The notes below the pieces were generated by a model. The model saw only the letters and a list, made by a program, of their open reading frames with translations, was not told the origin of the DNA and searched no databases. Position numbers and translations under genes: made by a program. A DNA stretch of 64,000 nt from a virus (taxonomy: Duplodnaviria > Caudoviricetes). Below, piece by piece: positions 25,107 through 64,000 of this stretch (position 1 is its first letter; each line of letters begins with the position of its first letter). The stretch spans positions 26,208-90,207 of IMG/VR virus record IMGVR_UViG_3300032086_004057, one strand, 5' to 3'.

Positions 25107-26981
25107 GTGAGTAGAAAAAAAGTCTTAATCCAAACTGACTTCTCTTTAGTCAAAACGGGCTTTGGTCGTAGTGCTAAGGCTCTTTTATCGTATTTATATA
25201 AAACTAACAAATATGATCTAGTTCATTTTTGCGTTGGAATGAACGAAGCTTCTCCAGCCCTTCTCCAAACCCCTTGGAAATCTGTCGGAACCCTCCCTAG
25301 TTCTCCAGAAAAATTAGATCAAATTAATAAAGACCCGAAACTAAGTAAAATTGCTCATTACGGGGCTTATTATTTAGATGAAATAATTGAACGAGAAAAG
25401 CCAGATGTTTATATCGCCGCTCAAGACATTTGGGGGGTAGATTTTGCAGTTGGGAAACATTGGTTTAATAAGATTAACTCAGCTATTTGGACAACGTTAG
25501 ATTCGCTACCGCTACTACCAACCGCCGTTGAATTGGCTCCAGAAATAAAAAACTACTGGATGTGGAGCAGTTTCGCAACGGAAGAAATGCATAGGCTTGG
25601 CCACAAACACGTCAAGACTGTCCACGGAATTATCGATACTGACAATTTCAAAAGACTAAAAGACGAAGAAAGAAAATTATTAAGAAAAAGAAATAATATA
25701 GAAGAAGATGCTTTTGTAATCGGTTTTGTATTTAGAAATCAGTTAAGAAAGTCCGCGCCTAACCTTATAGAAGGATTCAAAAAATTTAAAGATAAAAATC
25801 CACACATCAAAAACGCAAAACTATTATTACATACAAGCTATCAAGAAGGCTGGGATTTAAGAGCTTTAGCCGATGAGTACAAAGTAAACTGGGAAGATAT
25901 TTTAACGACTGTTATTTGCGCTAAATGCAAAAAATACGAGGTAAAATCATTTAAAAGACCAAATGACGAATGTAGATTCTGTGGTACTAAAGGCTCCGTG
26001 AACACCACTGGAGTCGCCTTGGGCGTTTCAGAAATTGAGCTAAATGAAGTCTATAACCTTATGGACGTGTACTGCCACCCGTTTACGTCTGGCGGTCAAG
26101 AAATTCCCATCCAAGAAGCTAAACTTACAGAGTTACCCACTTTAGTAACAAGCTATAGCTGCGGTCAAGAAATGTGTGGCAAAGCAGCAAATTCATTATC
26201 TTTAAATTGGACAGAGTATAGAGAATTTGGAACATCTTTCATTAAAGCTACCACCGACCCGAACCATATAGCTGAAAGACTTGAAGAGGTCTACAACATG
26301 CCAGACTCTGAAAGGCAAAGAATGGGTAAGGCGGCTAGAAATTGGACTCTTCAAAATTTCTCAGTTCAAAGCGTGGGTAAAGAGATAGAAAAATTTATCG
26401 ACTCCTGCAAAAAAATAAAAGAGTCCGAATACCCAAAACCAGAAAAAAAAGACCCTTATGCAAAAATAGAAAATATACCAAACGCTGTAGACTGGTTAAA
26501 AGCTCTTTACAAAAACATCCTAAAAACTACAGTAACCTCAAAAGACGAGGGTTTACAGTACTGGTTAACCGAATTAAGCAAAGGTGCTAAAGCGGAACAA
26601 ATAGAACAATATTTCAGAGATGTAGCTTCTCAAGATAATCAAAAAGCGAGTGATAAATTATTAAAAGATAAATTATCTGATAATAAAAATAGAATTTTAT
26701 ACATAATGCCTCTTGATGAAGTTGATATATTTGTTTCCACAAGCTTATTTAAATCTATAAAGGATTTGTACCCCGATCACGATTTATATGTTGCTTCTCA
26801 ACCTAAAAATGAACTAATTTTAGCTGCAAATCAATATGTTCATAAATTCTTAAAGTACGAGCAAGCTTTTGAACATTTACATTTACTTAAAGATGATCAA
26901 GGCGATGATCTTTTTGAGGCTATCTACACGCCTCATTTAAACAAAAATAATTACAATCTCATACACAAAACTAATCTATAA
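25107..26981 (+). CDS. Multidomain glycosyltransferase: GT4, DUF4214-like helical module, GT9-like N-lobe
   Basis: TGFGR, FRNQLRKS, YNLMDVYCHPFTSGGQEIPIQEAK (GT4). LYKNIL...DEGLQYW...L..G (DUF4214-like). RILYIMP...DIFVSTSLFKSIKDLYPD (GT9 N-terminus). Confidence 0.75.
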   Translation: MSRKKVLIQTDFSLVKTGFGRSAKALLSYLYKTNKYDLVHFCVGMNEASPALLQTPWKSVGTLPSSPEKLDQINKDPKLSKIAHYGAYYLDEIIEREKPDVYIAAQDIWGVDFAVGKHWFNKINSAIWTTLDSLPLLPTAVELAPEIKNYWMWSSFATEEMHRLGHKHVKTVHGIIDTDNFKRLKDEERKLLRKRNNIEEDAFVIGFVFRNQLRKSAPNLIEGFKKFKDKNPHIKNAKLLLHTSYQEGWDLRALADEYKVNWEDILTTVICAKCKKYEVKSFKRPNDECRFCGTKGSVNTTGVALGVSEIELNEVYNLMDVYCHPFTSGGQEIPIQEAKLTELPTLVTSYSCGQEMCGKAANSLSLNWTEYREFGTSFIKATTDPNHIAERLEEVYNMPDSERQRMGKAARNWTLQNFSVQSVGKEIEKFIDSCKKIKESEYPKPEKKDPYAKIENIPNAVDWLKALYKNILKTTVTSKDEGLQYWLTELSKGAKAEQIEQYFRDVASQDNQKASDKLLKDKLSDNKNRILYIMPLDEVDIFVSTSLFKSIKDLYPDHDLYVASQPKNELILAANQYVHKFLKYEQAFEHLHLLKDDQGDDLFEAIYTPHLNKNNYNLIHKTNL

Positions 26982-46124: not shown

Positions 46125-49100
46125 TTATCTATTCGTACCAGCGAGGGGCAATGACGAGCTAGGAATATTAACTGTTGTAGCTCTTGGCCCATTTGCGCCA
46201 GCGGCTCCAGCACCTAACTGTTGTTTAAGTTTATTTACGTCGGCTTGAAGACTTATCACCTCTGGAGCGCCACCAACTGCAATTTTTGGATCAATTACTA
46301 TTTGTATACTGTTATTAACAGTCTGACTATCTAATAAAGCTAACAACTGATTCTGAAACTCTTCACCAGATGTCGCTTGTGAGCCTAGCTTACCTTGCTC
46401 CAGTCTGTTTAGTAGCTCCTGCAACCCTTGCAACTGTAAAGCCGCGTTCTCTCTATCAGCCGTTCCAGAGGCAATTCCACGCTGAACGGTTCTAACTTGA
46501 TCCATTAAAAATTCTCTAGCTTCATTCGCTCCACCCGTCCCCTGAAGCCTATTTATCGCAGCCTGTCTTAGATTTCTTAACCTTCCAAAAGCGCGTTGGG
46601 TGTCTGTTGTTTCAACGCCATCTTCTGCTAAGTTATTTACATTGAAGTTATCACGAATATCCTGCAATTGCTGAACAGCAGCCCCAAACAACGGTCCTAA
46701 AGCTTTTATTTCATCGGGTGAAAGTGCAGTTGGATCAATTTGTCCCCCAGCGGTTACCGCTACTCCACCAATTCTAGCTCTTTCGTTTATCATCGCTGCT
46801 GTAGCAGGGTCGAAACTTTTTAATGTAGCCTCAGATAAGCTACCTAACAAATTTCCAGACTTAACGTCTATGCCTTGAATTTCTGATGTTAGTTTTTCTA
46901 TGGCTTTCGCTTCTTCAAGAGTTATTTGTCCGTCTTCTTGGGCTTTTTTTATTAATTCGTCAAGCTCGACGGCTTTTTCACCTCTCTGCGTTTGCAAATC
47001 TTTTATCTCTTTAGCCTTTTCAATATTCGCGAATTCTGTTGCTATCGCCGCTGGGATTGCTATCATGGCCCTTGTCATCGCCGCGATTCCCTCTTCAGTA
47101 TCTTGCAAGGCGTCACCCAAAGGTATATTAGCTACTACATTCGCTGCTGCTTCGGCAAATTTGCCGCCTGATAGCTCTTCAAGCATTTGTGCCGTGTTTT
47201 GAGCCGTTAGTTGGTTTGCTATCACGTCCTCTTGTTGCATCACATTAAGCTGTTGCTGGAGGCCAAGCAAGCTTTCGATGTTGTCGGGCATTTTTTGACG
47301 TTTGAATTCTGCCGCTACTTGTGTGGCGGCGATACTACCATAGTCTTGATTTCTCAATACTTCCGCTGCTCTCGCTAAATCTTGATTACCAGTTTCACTT
47401 GCAGCTTGCTCTAACACCGCTGCTCTAGCCATAGCTCTTCCTCTTAGGCTTTGCTCTAAACCAGATTGGACCAAATCTTTTAACCCTTCTGCACCTTGGC
47501 CCATCATTTCTGTGCCAATAAATTCGTTTAAATTACTTAAAAGTTGTCCAGCGAATTGACCAGTTTTAACTGAGTCTCCTCTACCACTAGCTTGCCTGAA
47601 TCCTTTAACAGCATTATTAAACCCGCTTTCCATTTCATCAAGCTGTTTTGGATTAAGAAAGGCTTTTATTCCGCCGCCAGCTTTTAACTCTTGATCGATT
47701 TTATTTTGAGCTTGAGCAAGTCTTGTTTGTAAACCTTGCATTCTCAATTGTTCTAGTCGAGTTTGCTCGGCTTTGGCCATTTCGCCAAGTTGTTGGGTTA
47801 GTAAGCTTTGTATTCCGTCTATATTTGCTATGTCAATTTTTTGACCTTCAAGCGCTCCACCTTTTCCAGTTGCTTGATTGATCACGTCCTGTAAAGCTTG
47901 CGCTGTTGCGCCCCCGCCTTGTGCGCTTGTTTGAATTAAAGCGTTTCCTAAATTTGCGAATAATGTTTGAGCGGCGGCACCACCTGCTCCTCCTTGACCA
48001 GCGGCCTCTAAAGCTTTTGCAACGGGACCAAATTTACTTACAGCATCGAATATTTCTTTGCTACCTTTTACTCTTAACTGCTCTTGCTTTACGCCAGCTT
48101 TTTGATTTATTTCTAACTGAGCGATATCACCTTCTAATTTTGTGCTTTGAAAAGATGTTTGGAATTGTTTTGCTAATTGAGCTCCACCTTTTACACCCGC
48201 GAGGGTTAATTCTTTTGTAAATTCTTTTTGCCTTCTTTTTGCTTTTTGTACGTTTGTTGCAAAAAGTTGTATTGATTTTACAAATTCTAAATTTCTTGAA
48301 GAGGCTTGTGCTATAGCAGCTTGTGCAGCGTTTGCTGCGGCGGCTTGAGCATCTAAAGCCGCTTGAAGTCTAGCGGTTTGAGCGGCTGCTTCTGCGGCTT
48401 CTTTTGATAAATTACTTACATCTAAAGCTAATGCGTAAACTTGACTACCAGCGCCTTCAACGAAAGAACCAGCTTGTTCAGCCGTTAAACCAAGTTCTTG
48501 TAAAGTTTTTTGTAACTGTTCAGTGCCACCCGTTTTTAAATCTGCTAGACCAGCCCTTCTTATTTTTTCCTGTTCATCGTCTGTAAGTTGGCGGCCAAGA
48601 GCGTCAACTATGGATTTGGCGTCTGACTTTCTTTGTTTTACACCTTCGGCACTTATCCCCCTTCCTTCCTCAACGTCTTCCGCACTTATTCCATATCTTT
48701 CTGAGGATTCTCGTTTTGCGATTTCTTTAGCTTCTTTTCGTGATTGGCGAAACCCTCTAAAAGTAAGTGCGCCTATAAATTTATCCGCTGCGGAAGCTGC
48801 TCGCCCAAGAGCGCTTGTAAGCTTCGAAGAGCCAAAACCCAATGTCTCCGCCGCCTTTGATACTACTTGAAGCTTCTCAGCCCCAAATTTAACAATGGCC
48901 CCAAGACCAACAAGCGCCGCATAGACTACACCTACAATGGCTGCTAGTTTAGCAAACAATACTACACCAAGCTTTAGACCCATTAATAATGCTCCAAACA
49001 TTTTTACGACAGATAAACCCGCAACAGTGAGCCCTGCAAACACCCCACCACCTGCCACCGCAGACGCGGTGCCCGCTACGGCAGTAGCGCCCGTTGCGGC

Positions 49101-52100
49101 TGTCATTGCCCCAGCAACAATTCCTTTACCCTTTAGTTTTGAAAACGCAAACCAAGCAACTAATATCCCTGTGATGTACTTTAAAGATGTTAATATAGTC
49201 TCTTGCTTGTCTTGTTTAGCTTGCTTTTCAAATTGCTTTTGTAATAATTCGTTTGTTTTTTTAGCTTCTTGATTGGCGGCGGTGTCTTTGCCAACTTTTC
49301 CAGCGGCTTCTCCTAATATTTGTTGTCTTTTTGTAGAATCTTGCTCTCGTAATAATTTACTTCTTAACTCAGCAGGTAATTTAGATAAGGCTTTAGCGTA
49401 TTTCGCTTGAGCGGCTTGAACTTGTTCTGCGTCACCAGCCGATAGCGCATCTGTTAAACTCGAAAGAGCTTGTTGAGTTTGTTGTATATTGTTTCCTTGT
49501 TCTTGCAATCTCACAGCGGCAGCGTCTAGCGCTGATCCATACGCTTTCATCTTCGAGCTACCCTCAGTTAAAGCAGTTTGAAACTGAAATGCTGCTGATG
49601 CTAGTCCAGCTATTGCCCCAACGGCAATTCCAACGGGACCAGGAATAGTTGTTATTGCAATTGCCGCTATTGATAATCCGCTTGTAAAAGCATTTATATT
49701 ATTAGCTGTTCTAGCGGCTTCTTCTCCCATTCCTTCAGTGGCCGACGCTGCAACACTAGTTATAAGAGACAGCGCCGTTGTAGCCGCAAACATTTTCTCA
49801 AAACCTCTGCTTGCAACGTCAGCTTTTTGGCTTACATTTTTAAGGGATTCGTTTACATTTTTTGTTTCAATATTCGGTATAGTAGGCTTAACAAAACTAG
49901 CAAAATTAGTTTGTTGAATCCCCGTTCCAGATACAAAATTAGGAACATACCCTCTAGCTAAAACATCTTTTATACCGCGAGGTTCATCGCGAGTATTTGT
50001 AACTGCTAATCCAAAAGGGTTTCCTTTGGTTGCTAATCTTCTGTCTTGACCAATACGTATTGCACCTTTCGAAACGCCAGCTTGATTTTCGCGTTTTACG
50101 GCATCGTTTAATGGGTTTGCGAAGTTAGGGATAAAACCGCCAGCTTTATTTGTCGCAAAAGCATTTTTTATAGCCCGATCAATAATTGGGTCTTTAGTGT
50201 TAAAAAGTTTACTTCTAAATTCTGAGATGTTACTTGGCGGAAAAGACAATTTTGCGTCTGTAACAGATGCAGCTTTAAATCCTGCGATATTGTTTTTACC
50301 TACCAAGGCTCCCAGCATTTTACCTTTGCGAGAAAAATCACCTTTCGTATAGTCCCATCTGCGACCAGCGCTTTTATCTTTTAAATCTATACCAGCATTT
50401 ATAGCGTCCTCGAATATGTTACCTGCTGTTAGTGAAAGTTTTTCTTGTCCTGCTTTAGACTGTAAATATTTATTTACTTTAGCTATATTAGGGAGCTCTC
50501 TTTCGTTCGGAGAAAAAAGTTGTTTACCTACACTACTTATAGCTTTTGCAATCGGACCTCTTAAAGTTGAGCTTATTATTTCGTCTATTTTACCATCGCC
50601 TTTGAGATTCTTTGGTCTTCTAACGAATAAACCTTTAACTTGTTTAAATGGCGCACCCTTTGTGGTTTTCGCCCCTACAAAACTTGCCGTTTCCTTTTGG
50701 TTGGTAGACAAACTAATGCCACCTCCTGACAAATTACCTTTAGTAGTAATTATGCCAACTCTATTTTTAAGGTCTATAGAGGTGGACTTTTGTTTCAGCA
50801 ATTCCGCTCTTCTTTTTCTGGCGGCGTCATAAATCCCTCCTTTCAGCAGAACTCCACCTTTACTGGCATTGGCTAATCCAGTTAAATCAGACGCTCTTGT
50901 AGCATTTTTTACATCGTCTAATGAAGCGTTCTTGTTTAACTTTACAAAGTTAGGAATAAACCCTCTGGCAGCAGCTTGCATAGCTGGGCTTGCTATAATA
51001 GTTCCTTTTCTTCCATTTGGCCCAATAACGTCTTGTTTCTTTTCGTAAGCGTTGTAAGTCGCCATGAAGGAGCCACCTCGACCATCAAAAACTCTCCCTC
51101 TTCTTGTTCTAGGGTTATTTACCTGAGTGCCGCTGTACATTCCAGAGAGAGCCATAGCAGCGGCTTCTCCACCATTGGCAAAATTAGGAACAAACCCAGA
51201 AGCTTTCGGCCTTTTACCTGCGGCGATTGTTTGGACACCAGCTACCGTTCTTACGGAAGCTCCAGCTTGGCTCATTTTTCCCGCTAATTGAGTCGCTAAA
51301 TTGTTCATTTGAATCAATTCAGCATTTAAGCCTTTATAAGAACCTAAAATTTGTTTTGCAGCAGTGTCTACACTGATTTCCCCTCGTTGAATTTGAGCTA
51401 AAACTTTAGGGTTTTCTTTTAGTATGTTTACTATACCCTGTTGAAGTTGCTGCTGTTGAGCGAAACTAGCGTTCAAACCAGAGAAAGTTCTAAAAGCGTC
51501 TGCGGCAAATTTTCTTAAATCATTAAATAATTTGAAAAGAACAGAAGCAGCCAAAGCTAAACCTGGCCCAGATATAAACTTACCAAGACCACCCAGCAAA
51601 GCTTTACCAATTCCTTCGCCTTTGCTTTCTGCGTCACCAAGGCTTATTTTTTCGGTAATCGCATTTACTATGTCGAGTACGTTTCTGATCGCTGGCTCTA
51701 AAGTTAGCTTACCAACGGCTGCACCAAGTTTTGTTAAATTTTGCAGCGTTTCATTCAAGCCAGCCGCTAAAGTTTTATTTAACTCAGCGTTTCTTCTCGC
51801 TGATTCCCCACTTGCTCTTCCAGCTATTTCAGTCGCGTTTGTAAACACTGAGTATTGACTACCCAAATCACTTAATGAAGCTTTTAACACGTTGATCTGG
51901 AAAACGCCACCAACCAACTCAGCTATTTGGGCTTGTTGCGCTTGAGTTAAAGTATCAAATGTGCCAGCTAAATTTCTCAGAACATTTATAGCTGAAAGAT
52001 TTGCTCCCGATGCATTTTTTGTTTTTACACCCAACTCGTCCAAAGCCTCTAATACTCTAGGTCTTTGAATACGAGTAAAAATAGTTTTAAACGAGTTACC

Positions 52101-52835
52101 GATTACAGCACCACCACGAGCGGTAATTTGCTGCGCTGCTGTTACAATACCCAAAAGTTCATCTAAGCTAACTCCAGCGCCTTCGGCGGTACTGCCTACA
52201 CGTCTCAAAGCTTCTGCTAAATCTGCACCACTAACAGCAAATGCTTGGTCAACCGCGATTAGTTTATCAACAACCGCAGTAGAATCTAAAGCTGCATTTC
52301 TGAAACCGTTTAAAGCGGCGGTGATAGCATTTACCGACTCTTCTACACCCAAGCCACTTAAACGAGCCAAGACCATTGCATCGGAAGTACGCTTTAAGGT
52401 TTCTTCCATAGCTAAACCTTGACGAGCAAGCTCGCCGCCAGCAATCGCTACGTCTTGAAATGATCTACCAGTTCTTTTGGCTATGTTGAAAAGTTCATTA
52501 CCAAATCCAGCGAGCTTCTTTTGTGATGTACCTAAAATTACATTTACTTCAGCAAGGGATTTCTCTACTTCTATAGTGGCTCTTACAGTCTCAGATAAAG
52601 CTTTTTGAACGGCATAAATGGCCCCAGCGGAAGCGCCAAACGCTAAAACACGAGCGTTAGAAGCCGCTAAAGATTTATCAAATTCCCCAAGGTCACCTTT
52701 TATCTTACCAAGGGGTTGAGAGAAATTTTTAGAATCAAGAGTTAGATTAACCTTTTTATTGGCGATCTTATTTATATCGCGCTCTAAAGGTCTCGTATTA
52801 CCCGCTACATCAACTGTTATTCTTGGTCCTGCCAT
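46125..52835 (-). CDS. Tail tape measure protein (TP901-type core), 2236 aa, with inserted domains
   Basis: IEVEKSLAEVNVILG, ELARQGL, AFAVSGADLAEAL.RVGSTA..AGVSLDELLG...A.....ARGGAVIGNSFKTIF; long Ala/Gln helical segments; hydrophobic mid-region. Confidence 0.92.
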   Translation of the reverse strand: MAGPRITVDVAGNTRPLERDINKIANKKVNLTLDSKNFSQPLGKIKGDLGEFDKSLAASNARVLAFGASAGAIYAVQKALSETVRATIEVEKSLAEVNVILGTSQKKLAGFGNELFNIAKRTGRSFQDVAIAGGELARQGLAMEETLKRTSDAMVLARLSGLGVEESVNAITAALNGFRNAALDSTAVVDKLIAVDQAFAVSGADLAEALRRVGSTAEGAGVSLDELLGIVTAAQQITARGGAVIGNSFKTIFTRIQRPRVLEALDELGVKTKNASGANLSAINVLRNLAGTFDTLTQAQQAQIAELVGGVFQINVLKASLSDLGSQYSVFTNATEIAGRASGESARRNAELNKTLAAGLNETLQNLTKLGAAVGKLTLEPAIRNVLDIVNAITEKISLGDAESKGEGIGKALLGGLGKFISGPGLALAASVLFKLFNDLRKFAADAFRTFSGLNASFAQQQQLQQGIVNILKENPKVLAQIQRGEISVDTAAKQILGSYKGLNAELIQMNNLATQLAGKMSQAGASVRTVAGVQTIAAGKRPKASGFVPNFANGGEAAAMALSGMYSGTQVNNPRTRRGRVFDGRGGSFMATYNAYEKKQDVIGPNGRKGTIIASPAMQAAARGFIPNFVKLNKNASLDDVKNATRASDLTGLANASKGGVLLKGGIYDAARKRRAELLKQKSTSIDLKNRVGIITTKGNLSGGGISLSTNQKETASFVGAKTTKGAPFKQVKGLFVRRPKNLKGDGKIDEIISSTLRGPIAKAISSVGKQLFSPNERELPNIAKVNKYLQSKAGQEKLSLTAGNIFEDAINAGIDLKDKSAGRRWDYTKGDFSRKGKMLGALVGKNNIAGFKAASVTDAKLSFPPSNISEFRSKLFNTKDPIIDRAIKNAFATNKAGGFIPNFANPLNDAVKRENQAGVSKGAIRIGQDRRLATKGNPFGLAVTNTRDEPRGIKDVLARGYVPNFVSGTGIQQTNFASFVKPTIPNIETKNVNESLKNVSQKADVASRGFEKMFAATTALSLITSVAASATEGMGEEAARTANNINAFTSGLSIAAIAITTIPGPVGIAVGAIAGLASAAFQFQTALTEGSSKMKAYGSALDAAAVRLQEQGNNIQQTQQALSSLTDALSAGDAEQVQAAQAKYAKALSKLPAELRSKLLREQDSTKRQQILGEAAGKVGKDTAANQEAKKTNELLQKQFEKQAKQDKQETILTSLKYITGILVAWFAFSKLKGKGIVAGAMTAATGATAVAGTASAVAGGGVFAGLTVAGLSVVKMFGALLMGLKLGVVLFAKLAAIVGVVYAALVGLGAIVKFGAEKLQVVSKAAETLGFGSSKLTSALGRAASAADKFIGALTFRGFRQSRKEAKEIAKRESSERYGISAEDVEEGRGISAEGVKQRKSDAKSIVDALGRQLTDDEQEKIRRAGLADLKTGGTEQLQKTLQELGLTAEQAGSFVEGAGSQVYALALDVSNLSKEAAEAAAQTARLQAALDAQAAAANAAQAAIAQASSRNLEFVKSIQLFATNVQKAKRRQKEFTKELTLAGVKGGAQLAKQFQTSFQSTKLEGDIAQLEINQKAGVKQEQLRVKGSKEIFDAVSKFGPVAKALEAAGQGGAGGAAAQTLFANLGNALIQTSAQGGGATAQALQDVINQATGKGGALEGQKIDIANIDGIQSLLTQQLGEMAKAEQTRLEQLRMQGLQTRLAQAQNKIDQELKAGGGIKAFLNPKQLDEMESGFNNAVKGFRQASGRGDSVKTGQFAGQLLSNLNEFIGTEMMGQGAEGLKDLVQSGLEQSLRGRAMARAAVLEQAASETGNQDLARAAEVLRNQDYGSIAATQVAAEFKRQKMPDNIESLLGLQQQLNVMQQEDVIANQLTAQNTAQMLEELSGGKFAEAAANVVANIPLGDALQDTEEGIAAMTRAMIAIPAAIATEFANIEKAKEIKDLQTQRGEKAVELDELIKKAQEDGQITLEEAKAIEKLTSEIQGIDVKSGNLLGSLSEATLKSFDPATAAMINERARIGGVAVTAGGQIDPTALSPDEIKALGPLFGAAVQQLQDIRDNFNVNNLAEDGVETTDTQRAFGRLRNLRQAAINRLQGTGGANEAREFLMDQVRTVQRGIASGTADRENAALQLQGLQELLNRLEQGKLGSQATSGEEFQNQLLALLDSQTVNNSIQIVIDPKIAVGGAPEVISLQADVNKLKQQLGAGAAGANGPRATTVNIPSSSLPLAGTNR

Positions 52836-52895: not shown

Positions 52896-53945
52896 TTATT
52901 GATGTATTTTTAGTATATCGCTAACACTCAAAGAGTCTTTTTTAAGCTCTTTTTTAAGTTTTTCGGCAGCTTCTACAAAATTTACTGGTCTAGCTTGCTC
53001 TGAGGCGGCTATTTGACCCACCTCTTCTTTTGTTGCGCCTGTATAGCTGACGCCTTCAAATCTTTCAGTGGTTTTACCTGAAGAGCTTGTTTGGGAGCTT
53101 GAAGATGGTTTTTGTTTATATTTTCTATTGATAATGTCTCTCTCCCTCTCGAACCAATCGATCATATCATCTACATCTTCTAGTTCTGGCGGGGTATTAT
53201 CAGAATTTTCTAAAACACTTTTGCAGCCATTTCCGTAAGAGCACAAGTTTGATTGATAAGTTGTGAAATCTTTAATGGCTTTACCCATAAAATAAAAAGG
53301 GTTTGATTTCGACAAAAGATAAGTATTTAAGAAAAAAGTACTATGAGCAACTCTTTTTATATTATGACTACTAAATTTATTTAATGCAAAATAATAAGAA
53401 TTAGTATAAACATAAGTATCTTCAACTGGTATTTCTTGATACTCTTCAAAATCAAACAAATACTCTTTTAAGTCAGGGGTTTTATAAAAAGAATAACACA
53501 ATATAAAATCATTAATTTTGCTATTAGCATATTCTTCTACTGTGTTTACTTTGATTTGCTTTCTTTTGAATTCTATTTCTTTGAATTGTTTTTCTTTTTC
53601 TTTTAATCTAGAATCAATAATATTTCTTTGAGCCTCAACAAATATTTTACTTTTTGATTTATTTAAGTTCTGTATTTCTTTAGAAAGTCTTTGATAGTTT
53701 TCCTCTTCCTGATTTGACCAGTTTCCTGTTTTGTCTAAAAGTTCGAAAAAATCTTTTTCAGTTTGAAGACCTCTTTCCAGAGCTATATTCTTAAATAAGT
53801 TTTTCTTTTCCTCGAAAAATGCATAATCGACATCTCTCAAGTGTTTTATGTAAACTTCTTTTGAGCCGATATGATAAGTCGAGTAACCGTTGATTATATC
53901 ATTATATAATCGTAGGCAAAACTCACTTTTTTCCTGTGGAGTCAC
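52896..53945 (-). CDS. Hypothetical protein, possible tail assembly chaperone (GTG start)
   Basis: Immediately upstream of the tape measure; helical and charged. Confidence 0.45.
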   Translation of the reverse strand: MTPQEKSEFCLRLYNDIINGYSTYHIGSKEVYIKHLRDVDYAFFEEKKNLFKNIALERGLQTEKDFFELLDKTGNWSNQEEENYQRLSKEIQNLNKSKSKIFVEAQRNIIDSRLKEKEKQFKEIEFKRKQIKVNTVEEYANSKINDFILCYSFYKTPDLKEYLFDFEEYQEIPVEDTYVYTNSYYFALNKFSSHNIKRVAHSTFFLNTYLLSKSNPFYFMGKAIKDFTTYQSNLCSYGNGCKSVLENSDNTPPELEDVDDMIDWFERERDIINRKYKQKPSSSSQTSSSGKTTERFEGVSYTGATKEEVGQIAASEQARPVNFVEAAEKLKKELKKDSLSVSDILKIHQ

Positions 53946-53954
53946 AAGAAAATT

Positions 53955-54944
53955 TTATTGAGAATCTTTTTCTGGGGCGGAATCAGATTCGGCTGCTTGT
54001 TTCAACTCTTCTTCTCTGGCGGCTTCAACCTCTTCGGATAAAGAGTCCAATTCCTCTTCTAGCTCTTCAGCGATAGCTTCTTGCTCTGCTTTGTATTGAG
54101 AATCTACAGCTTTGGCTACAATATCGTCGGTTTGACTTGGGTTTTCTTCTTCGTTATTGATATTAAAGATGTCTACTTCTTTCAATAATTCATCGGCAGC
54201 ATCAAAACCTTCTTTATCTGTAGCCTGTCCAGAATACCAAAAAGATATAAAATAAGCGAACTTTTTAACCGCAATGCTAAAGTGCTGTTTTTCTCCACCT
54301 TCGCTGTATTCTTCGCCTTCCTCGATTTCGTCGTAAGAATTTAATTTGTTTTCAAAAGTTTCACCATCGAAAACAGACTTAAAGTCTTCGTCTCCGTCTT
54401 CTTTAATGTAAGCTAAATTTAAAGTCCACCAAAGAATGGTTCTATTTCTAGCTTTGTGTTCTGCGGTTTGATCAAACAAAGAAGACTGAATGCTTTCAAA
54501 TTCAACAAGCTGTTGTCTTATAGAGGTGATTTCTAAAATTAAATCTTGTAATTTTTTTGCTCTCTTTTTTGCGTTTTCAGTATCTAATTGTATTCTTTGA
54601 ACTTCTTGCTCCTTTTCATGAAGAAGAGAATAAAGCTTAGAATACTTTTCTTGATCGGCGTCAGTTAAAGTACCTCCGTCATTAGCAAACCTTTTGGCCA
54701 GCAGAGTTTTCGTTAACATTCCAGCTTGAATGTACTTAGACAACTCAACCGAGTAAAAAAGCTCGCCATCTTCATATAAACTTCTCGTTGGTTTAAGAAT
54801 CGCGCACTTTACAGGCTTGTCTTTTTTAATCTTTTTAAACTGCTTGATTTCTTCACCGTCTTTAATTACTGGATCGATTTCGATTTCCTCTTCTACGGTT
54901 CTTGAAACCTTGAAGTGATACATCCATTTACTGTTTTTGCTCAT
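53955..54944 (-). CDS. Hypothetical protein, possible tail assembly chaperone
   Basis: Between tube and tape measure; coiled coil and acidic C-terminus. Confidence 0.45.
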   Translation of the reverse strand: MSKNSKWMYHFKVSRTVEEEIEIDPVIKDGEEIKQFKKIKKDKPVKCAILKPTRSLYEDGELFYSVELSKYIQAGMLTKTLLAKRFANDGGTLTDADQEKYSKLYSLLHEKEQEVQRIQLDTENAKKRAKKLQDLILEITSIRQQLVEFESIQSSLFDQTAEHKARNRTILWWTLNLAYIKEDGDEDFKSVFDGETFENKLNSYDEIEEGEEYSEGGEKQHFSIAVKKFAYFISFWYSGQATDKEGFDAADELLKEVDIFNINNEEENPSQTDDIVAKAVDSQYKAEQEAIAEELEEELDSLSEEVEAAREEELKQAAESDSAPEKDSQ

Positions 54945-55351: not shown

Positions 55352-56317
55352 TTAAACGCTTGCGATGATTAACTGGCTTTTTGAACCCGCTCCACCGATT
55401 GAGCATGAGAAGGTTGCGTTACATGTCGCAGCGGTGTCACCGATTGAGTTACTAAAGCTCACCGCGTCTAATGTACCACTTTGCAGCTTGAATCTAGTAG
55501 CTCCAAAATCAACAGCAACGTTACAAAAAGCACCGCTACCTGCCTGACCCGCTGTGCCGTCACTGGCTTTTTGTGACAAATCCGACAACGCCATAGACAT
55601 ACCTCTGTCTACAGCAAACGCTTCTAATTCCAAGGTAGCCGTAGCTGGGAAACTTGGCACACGAGCGTATTGGAATTTATTGTTTTGATCAGTTTGAATG
55701 CCAGCAGAATCCTTAAATGCCAGTTCCTGCAAACCTTCTACACCCAAGTCAAAACTTACAGTGGCGCTTTGCGGATGAACATAATGACCAGTAGTATCAG
55801 TAGTTATTTCACTGAAATCAACAACTACACCAGACTGAGTGGCGACATCGATATCAGTGGCGGGCGCAGTAACAGCATTTGTCGTGTAGCTCAAATCTGT
55901 TCCTTCGAAGCCCAAGGTCATCGTAGGAATAGCTCCGACACTTGCTTCAGCGCTCATTGACGTAAGCGAACCGCTAACCAATTGAATTGTAGCGTCTGAA
56001 CCGTCATAATCTTCACCTTCGGTGTTATCTAAGCCGACCAAACAATCAACGTTTGTACCAGATATGGCAGCACCGAGTAGTTCGCCTAAAACCTGAGCGG
56101 GAAGACCGCCAACGTACATAGTGGTTTCCAGATTAGCAACTGGAGCTTCTAAGATAATTCTATCTACAGCGCCCAAGTCACCAAATTGAAGTACGTCTTC
56201 GCGGGTTACATCAAGTCCGTAGTTTACACTTTGCACACCTTTACAGGTTTCGTTTGATATGCCGTTACCTTCGACACGAACGGACTGACTCTGGTAAATA
56301 ATTCTTTTTCTAGCCAT
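55352..56317 (-). CDS. Probable major tail tube protein
   Basis: Beta-rich. GVQSVNYG.D..REDVLQFG...AVDRI and QSATVSFDL..E.L.EL resemble tube folds. It has its own motif, a strong RBS (AGGAGA) and a terminator, as expected for a highly expressed gene. Confidence 0.7.
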   Translation of the reverse strand: MARKRIIYQSQSVRVEGNGISNETCKGVQSVNYGLDVTREDVLQFGDLGAVDRIILEAPVANLETTMYVGGLPAQVLGELLGAAISGTNVDCLVGLDNTEGEDYDGSDATIQLVSGSLTSMSAEASVGAIPTMTLGFEGTDLSYTTNAVTAPATDIDVATQSGVVVDFSEITTDTTGHYVHPQSATVSFDLGVEGLQELAFKDSAGIQTDQNNKFQYARVPSFPATATLELEAFAVDRGMSMALSDLSQKASDGTAGQAGSGAFCNVAVDFGATRFKLQSGTLDAVSFSNSIGDTAATCNATFSCSIGGAGSKSQLIIASV

Positions 56318-58821: not shown

Positions 58822-59406
58822 TTATTTTGTTTTATTTTTATTTATATTGCACCTGTATTCAAATGTTGCTTCTTGGTCTTCGAGCCATTTTAGTAGGTTT
58901 TCGTTGTCTATAGTAAAGCCTTCTTTTATATACTTTAATAATCTCCTATTGTTGACTCTCGGATGTCTGTCTTGGATAGGGTTCCTTACTAAGATTTTGC
59001 TTTTTATATGATTTTCGAAGTCAGAATGACAAACAAATTTTCCTTTATTATCTAAAGCAGCCATTCCTATCGTAAAATCAAATAATTTAATCATTTCTTC
59101 AGGAGTTTTAGCATTGGCTAAAGATTCATCAGAACCAGACCAGCAAAGCATGTCATAGTAATTATCTTTGTATATGTATTTCTCTCCTCGCGGTAAATCT
59201 TTAACTTTTTGTGCTCCAGATTCCAGTAGTCTTTTTTGGGCTATTTCTCTATCTTCGTGACTAGTAAAGAAAAAGTCATAATCTTTCGGCTTTTTACTAA
59301 TGAAAAAATCTTTTATTGAGCCTCCAGCAATCCAGAAATATACATCCAAACCTTCAAAAATTTCAAAGTGCGGCTGCATATGTTTTTTTAAATCATCCGA
59401 GTTCAT
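58822..59406 (-). CDS. Minimal class II (CCA-adding/poly(A) polymerase head-like) nucleotidyltransferase
   Basis: WIAGGSIKDFF...KPKDYDFF (GG..RD..DxD pattern) and FDFTIGMAALD (RDFT-like). Confidence 0.75.
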   Translation of the reverse strand: MNSDDLKKHMQPHFEIFEGLDVYFWIAGGSIKDFFISKKPKDYDFFFTSHEDREIAQKRLLESGAQKVKDLPRGEKYIYKDNYYDMLCWSGSDESLANAKTPEEMIKLFDFTIGMAALDNKGKFVCHSDFENHIKSKILVRNPIQDRHPRVNNRRLLKYIKEGFTIDNENLLKWLEDQEATFEYRCNINKNKTK

Positions 59407-61097
59407 AAGTATTTTAAATATCTTTTGTACTCTGGATGACCTTCTAACATATTATGAGTCTCCTCAGAAATTTCGCCTCTATCTAAATAAGTTTTATATC
59501 CCTCATTCTGAGAAGCATTTTCTTTCTTTTGGGGGATATACATGTGTTGAAAGTTATTTAATAAAAACGAGCCAAAATTTTTGTTGTTAAATTTTGCAAC
59601 GTGCTGTACGTCATCTACGTAATCAGGTAAACCCCATAAACGTTGCGCTCCTTTGCCACTGAGCATACCGCGAATAAAATTATTTAAATTAATATTGTGC
59701 GGATTGTTCTGTCCAGATATTCTTATCAACTGTTTCTTCAAAGGCTCTCTCAAATCTTGAGTACTTTTGTCTTCTCTTTCCCATTTATCCCACTGGCCTT
59801 TCGCCCAAAAATATAAAGAGCACATTATATCTTTAGGGTTTCTTATGAACATAAAAGTTAACCAGCCGTGATCGTTAAATTTCTTAACAGATTCCTTAGT
59901 CCAATTTATGTGATGATTATGCGTCAACGCTTCTTCTACGTCTTCTTCAGCTATTTTCAATAACTCTTCTTGCGTCCAATCTCTATTTAAAGCTCTTTTG
60001 TTGATGTAGTTAAAATCCCACCAAGAATTAAAATGTTTTATATTCGGGAAAACATGTTCTCTTATATAATGCTGGGTATAGACTCCAGCAGCTTTGCCAT
60101 AGTGTATGAATGCTAACTTTTTGTTGCAATCAGGATTGTAGTGTTTTCTTATATGGCTATTTATAATTGGGCTGTTTTTTGCTTGGGCTAAAGCGTAATC
60201 TTTGGTTTTTTTATTTAAAGCTATTAGACTTAACCCTCTACCTGCGCTACCTAATTCACTTATATGTGTATGAACAGATTTGGCTTTAAGTGGTAAATTT
60301 TCATCCCTCCAAAATCCTACGTTATGATCTTTGCCGAATGTTTGTATTTTATAGTGATCGGATATTCTATTCATGCACTCCTGCTCAAAAAAACTTGAAT
60401 CAGTCAAATACAAATGTCTCCAAAATTTTGGAAATCCTTTATTTGCACAAAATAAATATCCAGCGTTGTAAAAACCAAACTCAAAGCCCTTGTGTTGGTT
60501 TTCCGTTGGGTAATGATGAGGTGACAAAACAACTTCCGCAGTAAAGTATTCTTGCAAGCTATCTAAAACTATAATATCTGTATCTAGAAAAAAAGTATTA
60601 TCGTGGTGCTTTAATGCGAAATCCATAACCTCCATCTTTTTTAATATGGAAGGCGCGTCGTGAACGTCGTTAGCTATACAAGAATGACCTTCAAAAACTT
60701 TTTTTTGTATATCGTCTAAATGCTCTTTTTCTGCGGTTGTTTTAAATTTAACATTGTCGGTTACTTTCATTCTGTTCAAGAAAGTCCTACTGGCTTTATC
60801 ACAAATAATGTAAACAGGCTCTTCGTGAAAAAGCCTTAGAGTTTTTAGTAAAACTTCAGCTTCATCTTTGAGATTATCTGTGACAACAAAACAAAAGCTT
60901 TGTATTTTATGGTATGTTTGAGGCTCGTGCTTGGGGGGTAAGTTTTCTAACCAAAACTTTTTTGGGTTGTAATCTACGCTAAGATTATTTGTAAATAAAC
61001 CTTCTAATATATTAATATTTTTTGGTTCAAATAAATTACCTCCTAAGTCTCTTAAACCTAGTTCTTTATCTTTAATTTTTAATCGAGGCTGCTCCAT
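59403..61097 (-). CDS. Glycosyltransferase (GT-A) - sulfotransferase fusion
   Basis: N-half: KMEVMDFAL, TFFLDTDI (DxD), YNAG, FFEQECMN. C-half: FIHYGKAAG (5'-PSB-like) and FIRNPKDIMCSLYF (3'-PB-like). Confidence 0.75.
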   Translation of the reverse strand: MEQPRLKIKDKELGLRDLGGNLFEPKNINILEGLFTNNLSVDYNPKKFWLENLPPKHEPQTYHKIQSFCFVVTDNLKDEAEVLLKTLRLFHEEPVYIICDKASRTFLNRMKVTDNVKFKTTAEKEHLDDIQKKVFEGHSCIANDVHDAPSILKKMEVMDFALKHHDNTFFLDTDIIVLDSLQEYFTAEVVLSPHHYPTENQHKGFEFGFYNAGYLFCANKGFPKFWRHLYLTDSSFFEQECMNRISDHYKIQTFGKDHNVGFWRDENLPLKAKSVHTHISELGSAGRGLSLIALNKKTKDYALAQAKNSPIINSHIRKHYNPDCNKKLAFIHYGKAAGVYTQHYIREHVFPNIKHFNSWWDFNYINKRALNRDWTQEELLKIAEEDVEEALTHNHHINWTKESVKKFNDHGWLTFMFIRNPKDIMCSLYFWAKGQWDKWEREDKSTQDLREPLKKQLIRISGQNNPHNINLNNFIRGMLSGKGAQRLWGLPDYVDDVQHVAKFNNKNFGSFLLNNFQHMYIPQKKENASQNEGYKTYLDRGEISEETHNMLEGHPEYKRYLKYL

Positions 61098-61324
61098 TCT
61101 GGGCCTTCTAATATTTTTATGACCTCTTGGTGACTGTATTCTTGTAGACCTATTAAATCTCCAGTAATATTATAGCAAAATTCAGGCTGATCGCCAGTAT
61201 ATTTTAAAATAAAAAACTTATTATCCAAAGAATAACGAAGTGACTCTGGACCAGTTTGAAATACCTGATCAAAACGTACCCAATCAAGTTTATTCGCTGG
61301 AACTATAACGTAGGTTTTGTTCAT
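61079..61324 (-). CDS. Small hypothetical phage protein
   Basis: 81-aa ORF in operon order between the LamG protein and the GT-sulfotransferase. Confidence 0.65.
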   Translation of the reverse strand: MNKTYVIVPANKLDWVRFDQVFQTGPESLRYSLDNKFFILKYTGDQPEFCYNITGDLIGLQEYSHQEVIKILEGPEWSSLD

Positions 61325-61325
61325 T

Positions 61326-62102
61326 TTATTCTGTGTACATCGTTACGTCACCATATAATCGAGTATTGTTTATGGAGTAGGACGCTAAAAAGTTTTGCCT
61401 TATCTGTGAGGCAGTCAACTCAGAACTATAAACATGAATATGCCCTACCTTTACACCAGCAACACTATAACTGTTGTTATATCTTCCGACTTTTAGTGGC
61501 ACGTTTGGACCACCGCTCGGCGCATAAAAAGCATTTACTACCCCTATGAATTTTCCATTTAAATACATTTTATAACCGCCGTTACCATCGTGAGTAACAG
61601 TCGCATAAATCCATTTGTTTTTACCGAGAATAAAATTGTAATCTGGAGTAAAGGATACTGGGTCAGCATTTCCAGAACCTGTACGACTCCTTACCCTCAT
61701 TGAGTCAGAAGAAATCTCAACTGCTATATGGTTTATACTGGAGTCTTTAAGCTCAAGAATATAATGATTACTACCGCCACCAAAACTACTTGGTATAAAC
61801 ATCCATTGACCAAAAGTATAAGCGTCTTTAAAAGGTATAGTAAATGCAGTACCTCCGTAACCACTTGATGCTTCTCCTAAATAATCGTCAGTTCCGTCAA
61901 ACTCAAAATTTTGAGGACTTGAAGAATTATAAGTTATTCCATTGTACCTTCTAAGCGCATTACTAGCAGCTTGATTTGTCCAGCTACTTGATGCTATACC
62001 TAAACTTGGAACAAAATTACCAATTAAATTAGTGGATACAATCGCAGAAGATTTTTGCCCCAGTGTCTTGTTAAGACCTGTTTTGTGGATAGGAACCGAC
62101 AT
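61326..62102 (-). CDS. LamG/concanavalin A-like lectin-fold virion protein
   Basis: FEFDGTDDY, YTFGQW, WIYATVTHD, KMYLNG, PLKVG, HVYSSELTASQIRQNF. Confidence 0.8.
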   Translation of the reverse strand: MSVPIHKTGLNKTLGQKSSAIVSTNLIGNFVPSLGIASSSWTNQAASNALRRYNGITYNSSSPQNFEFDGTDDYLGEASSGYGGTAFTIPFKDAYTFGQWMFIPSSFGGGSNHYILELKDSSINHIAVEISSDSMRVRSRTGSGNADPVSFTPDYNFILGKNKWIYATVTHDGNGGYKMYLNGKFIGVVNAFYAPSGGPNVPLKVGRYNNSYSVAGVKVGHIHVYSSELTASQIRQNFLASYSINNTRLYGDVTMYTE

Positions 62103-62104
62103 GA

Positions 62105-64000
62105 TTAATCCTGCACAGCATAACTACATACTATGTCTGTTTCGTTAGTTCCGAAACAAGTCATACTTAATATTGCTATTTTGTTGGCAGCTATACTAGT
62201 TGGTTTTTCACCCACAAATTTCCAGCTACTATTCCACGTGAAAGCCCTGTTAGAGCTATCGCAAGTAATCCTAATTATAATAGTTTTACCCGCTCCTTTA
62301 TTTGCCGCAGCCGTATCAATTACTGGAGCCCCATTTAAAAGAACTTTTTGTAATGCGTCTTCATCAAAGTCAACATCAATGTTTGCTGTTGTACCGTAGT
62401 CATGAACGCTGGTGTGTAAATTACCAGTTAAATTTAAAAGGTTGCTAGAGAAAGTTAAATTAGCTTCGGCATCAAGCTGTGTAGTTGTCGCGGCAACAGT
62501 AGTTAACCTATTTTCTGCTGCATTATTGATTGTTGCTGATGCGCCTTGATTTCCTTGATTGCCTTGGGCTCCGTTATTACCCGCGTCACCTTGGTTGCCT
62601 TGGGCTCCGTTATTACCCGCGTCACCTTGGTTGCCTTGGGCTCCGTTGTTACCCGCGTCACCTTGGTTGCCTTGGGCTCCGTTGTTACCCGCGTCACCTT
62701 GGTTGCCTTGGGCTCCGTTGGAACCATTGCTTCCAGCAGCACCTTGATCGCCTTGGTCTCCAGCACCCGCAGCACCCTGAGCTCCTTGATCGCCTTGATC
62801 TCCAGTACCCGCAGCACCCTGAGCTCCTTGATCGCCTTGATCGCCTTGGTCTCCATTACCAGCAGCACCCTGAGCCCCTTGATCGCCTTGGTCTCCAGCA
62901 CCCGCAGCACCCTGAGCTCCTTGATCGCCTTGGTCTCCATTACCAGCAGCACCCTGAGCTCCTTGATCGCCTTGATCTCCAGTACCCGCAGCACCTTGGT
63001 TACCTTGAGCTCCGTTGCTACCCGCGTCACCTTGGTTACCTTGAGCTCCGTTGCTACCCGCGTCACCTTGGTTACCTTGGGCTCCGTTATTACCCGCGTC
63101 ACCTTGATTACCTTGGGCTCCGTTATTACCCGCGTCACCTTGATTACCTTGGGCTCCGTTATTACCCGCGTCACCTTGATTACCTTGAGCTCCGTTGCTA
63201 CCCGCGTCACCTTGGTTGCCTTGGGCTCCGTTGCTACCCGCGTCACCTTGGTTGCCTTGGGCTCCGTTGGAACCATTGCTACCCGCAGTCCCTTGGTACC
63301 CCTGATACCCCTGCTCTCCAAGACCAAGAACTTTAGTTATAGTAAATGTTATGCTTTCTATGTCTAAAGTAGCAGTACCTGCCAAGGTTTTCATTTTCAC
63401 ACCAATAGCATCACCGCTAGATAAATCTAAAAGTTTTATTATACTAAAAGAGCCTCCAGAGCCAGTGTTTTGAAACGATCTATCTACTTCTGTTGCAACG
63501 TTAACTGCGCCGTTTACAGAAACCCCCGCTCTAACAGTTACATTAGCGTTTTGGGATGAAACTGAAAATGCAGCAGCTATCTTATAAACACCATCGGAAG
63601 CCAAATTAAGAATATCGGGATCAGAGCCAGTTCCAGAGGTAAAAGTAATATTTCTTAGCTCTCCAACCTCTCCAGTATTCCACCCCGTGTAAGAGGTTGT
63701 TAAAGCTATCGTACTAGAATCTCCAGCGTCAAAAAATTCTCCATAATCTATCGAACCACTTACAAAACCACTAACACCTTGAAACCCTTGGTAGCCCTGA
63801 TCACCATCTGGCGGACCTTGAACTCCTTGAACGCCTTGATTACCTTGAGCTCCGTTAGCGCCCTGATTCCCTTGCGCTCCGTCATCACCTTGATTTCCTT
63901 GGGCTCCGTTGCTACCCGCATCACCTTGGTTACCTTGGGCTCCATTATTTCCAGCAGCACCTTGAAACCCTTGAAAACCTTGGTTGCCTTGAGCTCCGTT
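62105..64000 (-). CDS. Second collagen-like (Gly-X-Gln) tail fibre, 5'-truncated by the window end
   Basis: The frame of the tracked ORF (TTG 63604) stays open to 64000 (NGAQ...[10 protein letters not shown]...). [12 protein letters not shown] repeats at 62540-63310 and 63780-64000; C-terminal beta domain ending FTWNSSWKF. Confidence 0.85.
   Translation of the reverse strand, partial: NGAQGNQGFQGFQGAAGNNGAQGNQGDAGSNGAQGNQGDDGAQGNQGANGAQGNQGVQGVQGPPDGDQGYQGFQGVSGFVSGSIDYGEFFDAGDSSTIALTTSYTGWNTGEVGELRNITFTSGTGSDPDILNLASDGVYKIAAAFSVSSQNANVTVRAGVSVNGAVNVATEVDRSFQNTGSGGSFSIIKLLDLSSGDAIGVKMKTLAGTATLDIESITFTITKVLGLGEQGYQGYQGTAGSNGSNGAQGNQGDAGSNGAQGNQGDAGSNGAQGNQGDAGNNGAQGNQGDAGNNGAQGNQGDAGNNGAQGNQGDAGSNGAQGNQGDAGSNGAQGNQGAAGTGDQGDQGAQGAAGNGDQGDQGAQGAAGAGDQGDQGAQGAAGNGDQGDQGDQGAQGAAGTGDQGDQGAQGAAGAGDQGDQGAAGSNGSNGAQGNQGDAGNNGAQGNQGDAGNNGAQGNQGDAGNNGAQGNQGDAGNNGAQGNQGNQGASATINNAAENRLTTVAATTTQLDAEANLTFSSNLLNLTGNLHTSVHDYGTTANIDVDFDEDALQKVLLNGAPVIDTAAANKGAGKTIIIRITCDSSNRAFTWNSSWKFVGEKPTSIAANKIAILSMTCFGTNETDIVCSYAVQD

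Follow-up and report, generated by a model that had tools for sequence, protein, structure and literature searches.

A module array with an exchangeable central module, fenced by a nine-residue peptide, in the tape measure protein of an uncultured marine tailed phage

Tape measure proteins (TMPs) are usually treated as passive rulers, occasionally carrying a cell-wall hydrolase. The DNA analyzed here is a 64,000-nucleotide stretch of a virus of the Caudoviricetes (IMG/VR record IMGVR_UViG_3300032086_004057, positions 26,208 to 90,207), hereafter called the window. Its TMP gene raises the question of why a presumed ruler should contain a series of folded units separated by copies of one short peptide. 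The region proves to be an array of modules separated by a motif and inserted behind the conserved N-terminal part (~545 residues) of a TP901-type TMP. What is new here is the precise exchange of the central module of this array, at the linker peptide, between near-identical phages.

The gene is a very long open reading frame (ORF) within a co-oriented block of tail genes on the minus strand.

46125-52835, minus strand: tape measure protein (P0001), 2236 residues; a single ORF with matches to Pfam PF10145 and to PHROG families

The PF10145 domain (PhageMin_Tail) covers residues 119-306, with an E-value of 8.9e-31 and 107.8 bits for a cut-off of 33.2. The N-terminal 400-500 residues have matches to nine PHROG tape-measure families, the best one with an E-value of 5e-53. 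By these family matches, the product is a TP901-type TMP, and an earlier note on this DNA, made from the letters alone, had named the gene correctly.

Exactly four copies of a G[FY][IV]PNF motif are present in this single ORF, each at the position that the earlier note had given. The TMP contains no further PNF besides these four, and G[FYW][IVL]PNF was not found elsewhere in the six frames of the window. The motifs delimit the elements listed below in their order along the protein; pLDDT is the predicted local distance difference test score of the AlphaFold models.

51180-51197, minus strand: motif 1, GFVPNF, residues 547-552, opens unit A; string match, in a stretch with pLDDT <50
50964-51179, minus strand: unit A, residues 553-624, the array start unit; alignment A6, first in most relatives
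50946-50963, minus strand: motif 2, GFIPNF, residues 625-630, left junction of the exchanged segment; located at the identity break
50139-50945, minus strand: central module, residues 631-899, a basic domain matching no known fold or family; AlphaFold and searches
50121-50138, minus strand: motif 3, GFIPNF, residues 900-905, opens unit B; string match, in a stretch with pLDDT <50
49953-50120, minus strand: unit B, residues 906-961, the array end unit; alignment A5, last in most relatives
49935-49952, minus strand: motif 4, GYVPNF, residues 962-967, second sharp junction; identity to P0009-P0015 collapses after it
49821-49934, minus strand: variable stretch of ~38 residues after motif 4, residues 968 to ~1005; alignments

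The first pair of motifs encloses 72 residues and the second 56, and both enclosed units are folded in the model, in agreement with the small units described earlier. The ~270 basic residues that had been noticed between the pairs correspond to the 269-residue central module, in which 50 lysines and arginines face 23 aspartates and glutamates, for a net charge of +27.

The exchange of this module is visible in phages that are otherwise nearly identical to the window. The 129-kb contig L089 shares a 26.7-kb syntenic stretch with the window, ~98% identical except inside the TMP gene. The DNA identity is 98.4% from window position 59018 to exactly 50945, the base after motif 2, and no similarity is detectable across the central module. 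Identity is 78% over 50105-49190, is again absent across 49189-48635 and amounts to 97.8% over the remaining 12.5 kb. In a second viral contig, L001, the gene directly upstream of the TMP is 98.6% identical. The first 1830 bases of its TMP gene contain eleven mismatches, and the identity drops directly after the codons of motif 2. At the protein level, the L001 TMP is ~100% identical to that of the window over residues 1-630, 10-30% over residues 631-900 and ~72% in unit B. A second divergence, of ~40 residues, follows motif 4, after which the identity is back at 90-100%. The DNA of that variable stretch (49821-49934) is 33-50% identical, compared to 93-100% on its far side, and the protein alignments agree.

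The same pattern is found in six protein relatives, which are perfectly identical through “...ARGFIPNF” and show no identity beyond F630, with a second collapse right after motif 4. Identity therefore collapses exactly at the conserved short motif at both junctions. Unit B remains 77-82% identical in phages with a replaced central module. TMPs with a 98-100% identical N-terminus have centres that are 23-28% identical to that of the window and 71-92% identical among themselves. The closest centres to that of the window (48-65%) occur in TMPs whose N-termini are 77-84% and whose C-terminal parts are 27-42% identical. As the histories of allele and backbone disagree, the window phage has taken over its central module from a different lineage, joined on at the motif. 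On the evidence of these alignments, the sequence of the central module is exchanged between phages by recombination, with junctions located exactly at the linker and with the key charged residues fixed. The variable slot suggested by the earlier note is thus recognizable as such, as the break between near-identical phages lies exactly at the motif.

The second patch without similarity to L089 (48635-49189, residues ~1216-1400 of the TMP) encodes a hydrophobic, Gly/Ala-rich, membrane-like stretch. Because the segment between the two patches is just 78% identical, residues 631 to ~1400 may have been imported together.

The peptide is not particular to the window. A word-seeded search with residues 530-985 found 362 proteins. 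The 120 listed relatives are 1240-3723 residues long, PF10145 is carried by 116 of them, and the motif was found in all 120, in two to eleven copies each. The 741 distinct motif contexts define a nine-residue peptide, [AS]-x-G-[FY]-[IV]-P-N-[FY]-A, with flanks that are essentially unconserved in the sequence logo. Given its presence in every one of these TMPs and in so many distinct contexts, the recurrence of the motif is not due to chance; hundreds of long metagenomic TMPs hold the nine-residue peptide. Its codons vary synonymously, which indicates selection on the peptide and not on the DNA. In the AlphaFold model of the 442-residue cassette (residues 536-977; 51 aligned sequences, mean pLDDT 74.8), all four motifs fall in stretches with a pLDDT below 50, between well-modelled units. 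They are thus conserved peptides in flexible linkers, outside the folded units. The motif is therefore selected as a peptide, lies in predicted flexible linkers and marks every module border, where the recombinants join. A literature search for the motif strings, of incomplete coverage, returned one unrelated serum-proteomics paper and no paper on the motif. The cassette had no DNA or protein match in 50,697 deposited phage genomes (blastn, tblastn).

A distant branch of relatives (P0126-P0190) keeps unit A and the central module, with the PNF peptide replaced by G[FYHN][IML]P[KR][FY]A. Unit A of these proteins contains an internal E[IV]PNF and two further hPx[FY][AG] repeats within ~25 residues.

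The order of the elements follows a fixed grammar: a start unit A, one or more modules and an end unit B, with the linker peptide between the elements. This was revealed by cutting the proteins at the motifs and clustering the pieces. One short-unit family, with 182 pieces in 116 proteins, includes both units of the window. A central-module family is present in 114 of the 120 proteins, and ~50 other small families or singletons make up the rest. Two types can be told apart among the short units, a start type (A) and an end type (B), and their conserved cores differ. Unit A is modelled as two short helices and a four-stranded meander (pLDDT 80-87), and unit B as a helix, two strands and a helix, with the invariant core NP..V.N..EP.G (alignment A5). 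When 201 proteins were labelled with profiles of A, B and the central module (C), 66 had the order A-C-B, which is that of the window, and 42 had C-B. In most of the expanded arrays, A comes first and B last, and as many as eight further modules lie between the two. Array length ranges from 285 to 1579 residues and is uncorrelated with how long the protein is outside the array (r = -0.04, 157 proteins), so that the array looks like an add-on to the ruler rather than a part of it. Neither sequence nor structure searches gave the cassette a relative among solved proteins: profile and phmmer searches of the cassette, the central module and units A and B against PDB sequences returned coiled-coil matches or noise only. 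The 442-residue model gave helix matches only (Foldseek against PDB, wide VIA), with a best Z of 4.8.

Other domains can occupy the slot. In P0054, the position after unit A is taken by a DUF7178 domain (residues 658-877; 31.2 bits, cut-off 27), which has no detectable homology to the central module (hhalign probability 0.09%). P0027 carries a GNAT acetyltransferase module between motifs (residues 1359-1419; 26 bits, cut-off 20.7), and weaker GNAT matches lie between motifs in P0108, P0109 and P0098. The content between the motifs is thus not invariant among homologues. The cargo slot proposed earlier takes the form of rapid allele replacement within one domain family, together with occasional non-homologous replacement or addition.

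The usual occupant, the central module, combines rapid divergence with a small set of nearly fixed residues, at the following positions.

50409-50423, minus strand: G805-N-I-F808-E809, on a long helix (model residues 164-185); 115-sequence alignment and model
50352-50354, minus strand: D828, in a loop with pLDDT ~65; invariant in 115 of 115 sequences, placed by the model
50250-50258, minus strand: D860-A-K862, on a beta strand (model residues 228-232); 115-sequence alignment and model
50208-50210, minus strand: K876, on the helix after the DxK strand; alignments A2 and A3

In the alignment of 115 central modules, G805, F808 and K862 are invariant, as is D828. Position 809 is a glutamate in 110 sequences and an aspartate in five, while position 860 is an aspartate in 70 and a glutamate in 45, and nothing else. 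K876 is invariant in alignment A2 and nearly so in A3. The residues E809, D828 and D860-x-K862, singled out in the earlier note from one sequence, are therefore the most conserved positions of the module. The three strings in which it had recognized them are all present on the minus strand, AGNIFEDAI at 50400-50426, RRWDY at 50349-50363 and TDAK at 50250-50261, but two of its coordinates were off by one base.

Folded alone (50 sequences), the central module gives a confident single-domain model (pLDDT 85.4, predicted template modelling score 0.74), with a sheet-forming N-terminal part followed by a helical part. A two-residue strand directly follows D828 in the cassette model. An exhaustive profile search of 1.84 billion representative proteins returned just 175 relatives, nearly all of them long proteins with the module at residues ~600-900. 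The short matches that were inspected carry the motif, have no start methionine or show a frameshift-like end, and thus look like gene fragments. Outside such likely fragments, the module occurs, as far as these sequence searches reach, only in long proteins, which are TMPs where checked.

Is the central module a nuclease? The signature of the PD-(D/E)xK superfamily consists of F-E on a helix, an aspartate followed by hydrophobic residues, an h-x-h-(D/E)-x-K strand and a helix with a conserved lysine. Its canonical core is alpha-beta-beta-beta-alpha-beta, in which a beta1-beta2 hairpin separates the E-helix from the (D/E)xK strand. The earlier note had in mind a nuclease-like effector of this restriction-endonuclease fold, delivered at infection; injected with the TMP, it would cut host or competitor nucleic acid. 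The order of the residues and their local context fit the signature (E809 on a helix, then D828, then the D860-x-K862 strand, then the helix with K876). Across alleles with only 20-30% identity elsewhere, these positions vary little or not at all, and the module is strongly basic. The signature and its order have thus held, but in the structure searches the confident model showed no recognizable nuclease fold and matched no other solved fold. In the predicted topology (DSSP order), the interval from the E-helix to the DxK strand, where the hairpin is expected, is free of strands. The 32 residues from D828 to the (D/E)xK motif are occupied by helices, and D828 itself sits in a loop of lower confidence.

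The searches give the same picture. Pfam run on 13 central modules at E ≤ 10 yielded scattered single matches and no nuclease. The comparison with PDB sequences yielded noise, an ESM Atlas search no usable match, and Foldseek against PDB and BFVD nothing at E ≤ 0.001. In the wide VIA search, the best match (Z 4.9) was a helical hairpin, and no nuclease was present among the best 50 matches. By hhalign, the 115-sequence profile of the module was compared with PDDEXK_1, Mrr_cat and VRR_NUC profiles built from genome hits, giving probabilities of 0.08%, 0.18% and 0.06%, respectively. This comparison is without power, as the three genuine nuclease profiles fail to recognize one another (0.2-2.6%). 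In a permissive alignment, FE, D and xK of the module fall on FE, GID and QxK of Mrr_cat, a pattern match that, at the probability given above, carries no weight. On balance, a PD-(D/E)xK nuclease is possible rather than probable.

A less specific reading of the function is preferred. With a probability of roughly 0.55, the region would be a motif-fenced, recombinationally exchanged TMP module array whose central module has an active or ligand-binding centre and acts on the host at infection. In this model, E809, D828, D/E860, K862 and K876 would form that centre. Its simplest identity would be an E...D...(D/E)xK site that binds nucleic acid or acts as a metal-dependent phosphoesterase. The module would leave the virion with the TMP at infection and act at the host envelope or in the cytoplasm, and its fast allele replacement might reflect an arms race with the host. 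The linker would be selected at the protein level as a joint by which each module can fold on its own, and possibly also be docked or cut on its own. Since such a joint would allow independent folding, we infer that it may be the only place where recombinants stay viable. The enzyme-like character of the central module, possibly that of a nuclease, and the role of the peptide are both inferred. Of the interpretation in the earlier note, a swappable, enzyme-like module is supported, while nuclease activity, cleavage at the motif and delivery into the host are hypothetical.

Several observations weigh against this preferred reading. The structural and sequence searches described above, the missing strands and the low-confidence position of D828 all count here as well. 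A role in structural salt bridges, or in a binding site, would explain the conserved charged residues equally well. A folded domain of 270 residues is hard to fit in the lumen of the tail tube. No co-varying partner gene was found within 10 kb on either side of the TMP gene in the comparison of the window with L089, where these flanks are 93-98% identical and have the same gene order.

The last point would suit a central module that is a non-enzymatic surface for host contact or evasion, which either engages an envelope protein or is seen by superinfection-exclusion or defence proteins. Allele turnover would then be explained by host engagement or recognition, and the module indeed diverges extremely fast compared to units A and B. 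The L089 exchange spans residues 631 to ~1400 including the membrane-like stretch, so that two host-facing parts would change together. The function of the HK97 TMP is reported to depend on inner-membrane and periplasmic proteins of the host (Cumby et al. 2015, cited in PMC6116005). However, five charged residues that are invariant across alleles of 20-30% identity are unexpected for a pure binding surface, and GNAT enzyme modules hold the same grammar in relatives. This surface explanation is regarded as a tentative alternative to an active or ligand-binding centre.

For the peptide itself, the options include a joint that allows neighbouring modules to fold independently once they have passed the tube, a peptide to which a phage or host factor docks, and a protease site. 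In the last case, the motifs would be protease or self-cleavage sites and the TMP a polyprotein, from which modules are released before or after ejection. Such cleavage is compatible with any of the readings of the central module. A conserved nine-residue peptide in disordered linkers at every module boundary, with small residues at -2 and 0 ([AS]-x-G), is what a cleavage site might look like, and for polyvalent virion proteins, processing into units is assumed (PMC5512222). However, Pfam detected no peptidase domain in the TMP, which shows PF10145 only, in the ten neighbouring ORFs scanned or in seven expanded relatives. PHROGs detected none in a partly overlapping set. No natural gene splits were seen at the motif, the short proteins looking like assembly fragments.

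Two specific mechanisms were rejected. The asparagine of the motif is fixed in the close family, and lysine or arginine takes its place in the distant relatives with the same module. Their form of the peptide argues against a chemistry that needs asparagine, such as asparagine-lyase self-cleavage, and Asn-dependent self-cleavage or isopeptide formation at PNF was discarded as a general mechanism. A signal-peptidase or prepilin-peptidase reading, with cleavage between G and F of [AS]-x-G-F, was dismissed, as no hydrophobic segment adjoins the motif. Overall, processing at the motifs is considered rather unlikely.

Another explanation places the peptide in virion assembly: the motifs would dock to the lumen of the tube or to the chaperones of tail assembly, and the array would be structural and without a function once ejected. 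A repeated aromatic-Pro-aromatic peptide would be suited to docking. Two large ORFs lie upstream in the usual chaperone position, and homologues of both accompany motif-bearing TMPs in eight other loci. Against this, the number of motifs (2-11) bears no relation to protein length outside the array, and the motifs are located only at module borders and are absent along the helical ruler. Enzyme domains such as GNAT, moreover, have no obvious role in assembly. A purely structural array is considered quite improbable.

That a TMP may carry a working enzyme into the cell has published precedents, in gp96 of Thermus phage P23-45 (PMC10770324) and in TMP-borne lysins (PMC6116005). Enzyme motifs embedded in TMPs are described for TM4 (the peptidoglycan-hydrolase motif Mt3; Piuri & Hatfull 2006), T5 (pb2; Boulanger et al. 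2008) and phiIPLA35 (a muramidase; PMC6116005). These resemble the window in being functional modules inside a siphophage TMP, presumed to be active after leaving the tail. They are recognizable cell-wall hydrolases without a conserved fencing peptide. The module of the window, in contrast, could not be matched to any known fold or family. It is bounded by the nine-residue linker together with dedicated start and end units, and phages exchange it as a cassette. The P23-45 gp96 protein is a TMP of 5002 residues with a virion RNA polymerase as its N-terminal part; the polymerase is proposed to act at the entry pore during genome delivery (PMC10770324). If the central module were a nucleic-acid enzyme, both would be enzymes fused to a TMP, but that of gp96 is N-terminal and homologous to cellular RNA polymerases.

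Polyvalent proteins are multi-effector virion proteins processed via embedded metallopeptidase domains (Iyer et al. 2017, PMC5512222); TMPs are not mentioned in that paper (0 occurrences). The present family would resemble them in combining several unrelated, putative effector domains per polypeptide in variable sets (GNAT, DUF7178 and many unnamed modules in the relatives). Unlike them, the TMP of the window carries one non-TMP module and two small units rather than many domains, and Pfam found no embedded peptidase of the MPTase type in it.

The clearest parallel for the junctions may lie in bacterial toxins. Polymorphic toxins carry demarcation motifs, such as VENN in CdiA and PxxxxDPxGL in Rhs. 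There too, a short conserved peptide borders a carrier and an exchanged domain, and the identity between close relatives collapses right after it. In the window, on the other hand, the variable part lies inside the protein instead of at its C-terminus, no immunity gene beside it varies along with the allele, and most of the alternative alleles are members of a single domain family with the same key residues. A more far-reaching proposal can be formulated. Marine siphophage TMPs might be polymorphic effector racks, with the peptide as a joint for exchange and for release or positioning after ejection. The central module would then be a metal-dependent nucleic-acid enzyme of new fold that enters before the genome and is in an arms race with host immunity. 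In this complete form, the proposal is held to be doubtful.

The array points to a changeable set of proteins that would reach the host before the DNA. It belongs to a large uncultured family with a fixed grammar, in which two phages ~98% identical over 26.7 kb differ by a precise cassette replacement at the peptide. The central module is a testable domain, with five obvious residues to mutate. The linker joint would be a natural site at which a virion protein might accept foreign domains, and the motif offers a simple way to screen metagenomes for such arrays.

The motif-bearing TMPs of loci L037-L046 were found in metagenome-assembled genomes labelled Flavobacteriaceae, Cellvibrionales, Halobacteriovorax, Verrucomicrobiales, Crocinitomicaceae, Saccharibacteria and others. 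As these labels span many different phyla, host assignment of the relatives is treated as unreliable, and the contigs are probably phage contigs swept into the bins.

The neighbours of the TMP gene mostly belong to no family. One has a weak match to a minor tail protein (55352-56317), one is lectin-like and one is a collagen-like fibre protein. Tail chaperones upstream of a TMP are usually arranged with a -1 frameshift overlap. In the window, the two ORFs directly upstream (53955-54944 and 52896-53945, minus strand) share the same reading frame, and the gap between them (53946-53957) consists of a TAA and three codons. This pair could be expressed by stop-codon readthrough or simply be two genes. 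Further upstream, window positions 59079-62946 are just 93% identical to positions 1-3817 of L089, with indels, compared to ~98% in the rest of the region. This stretch contains the lectin-like gene and a gene of 564 residues (59403-61097), at which the gene calls in L089 differ (81 and 374 residues).

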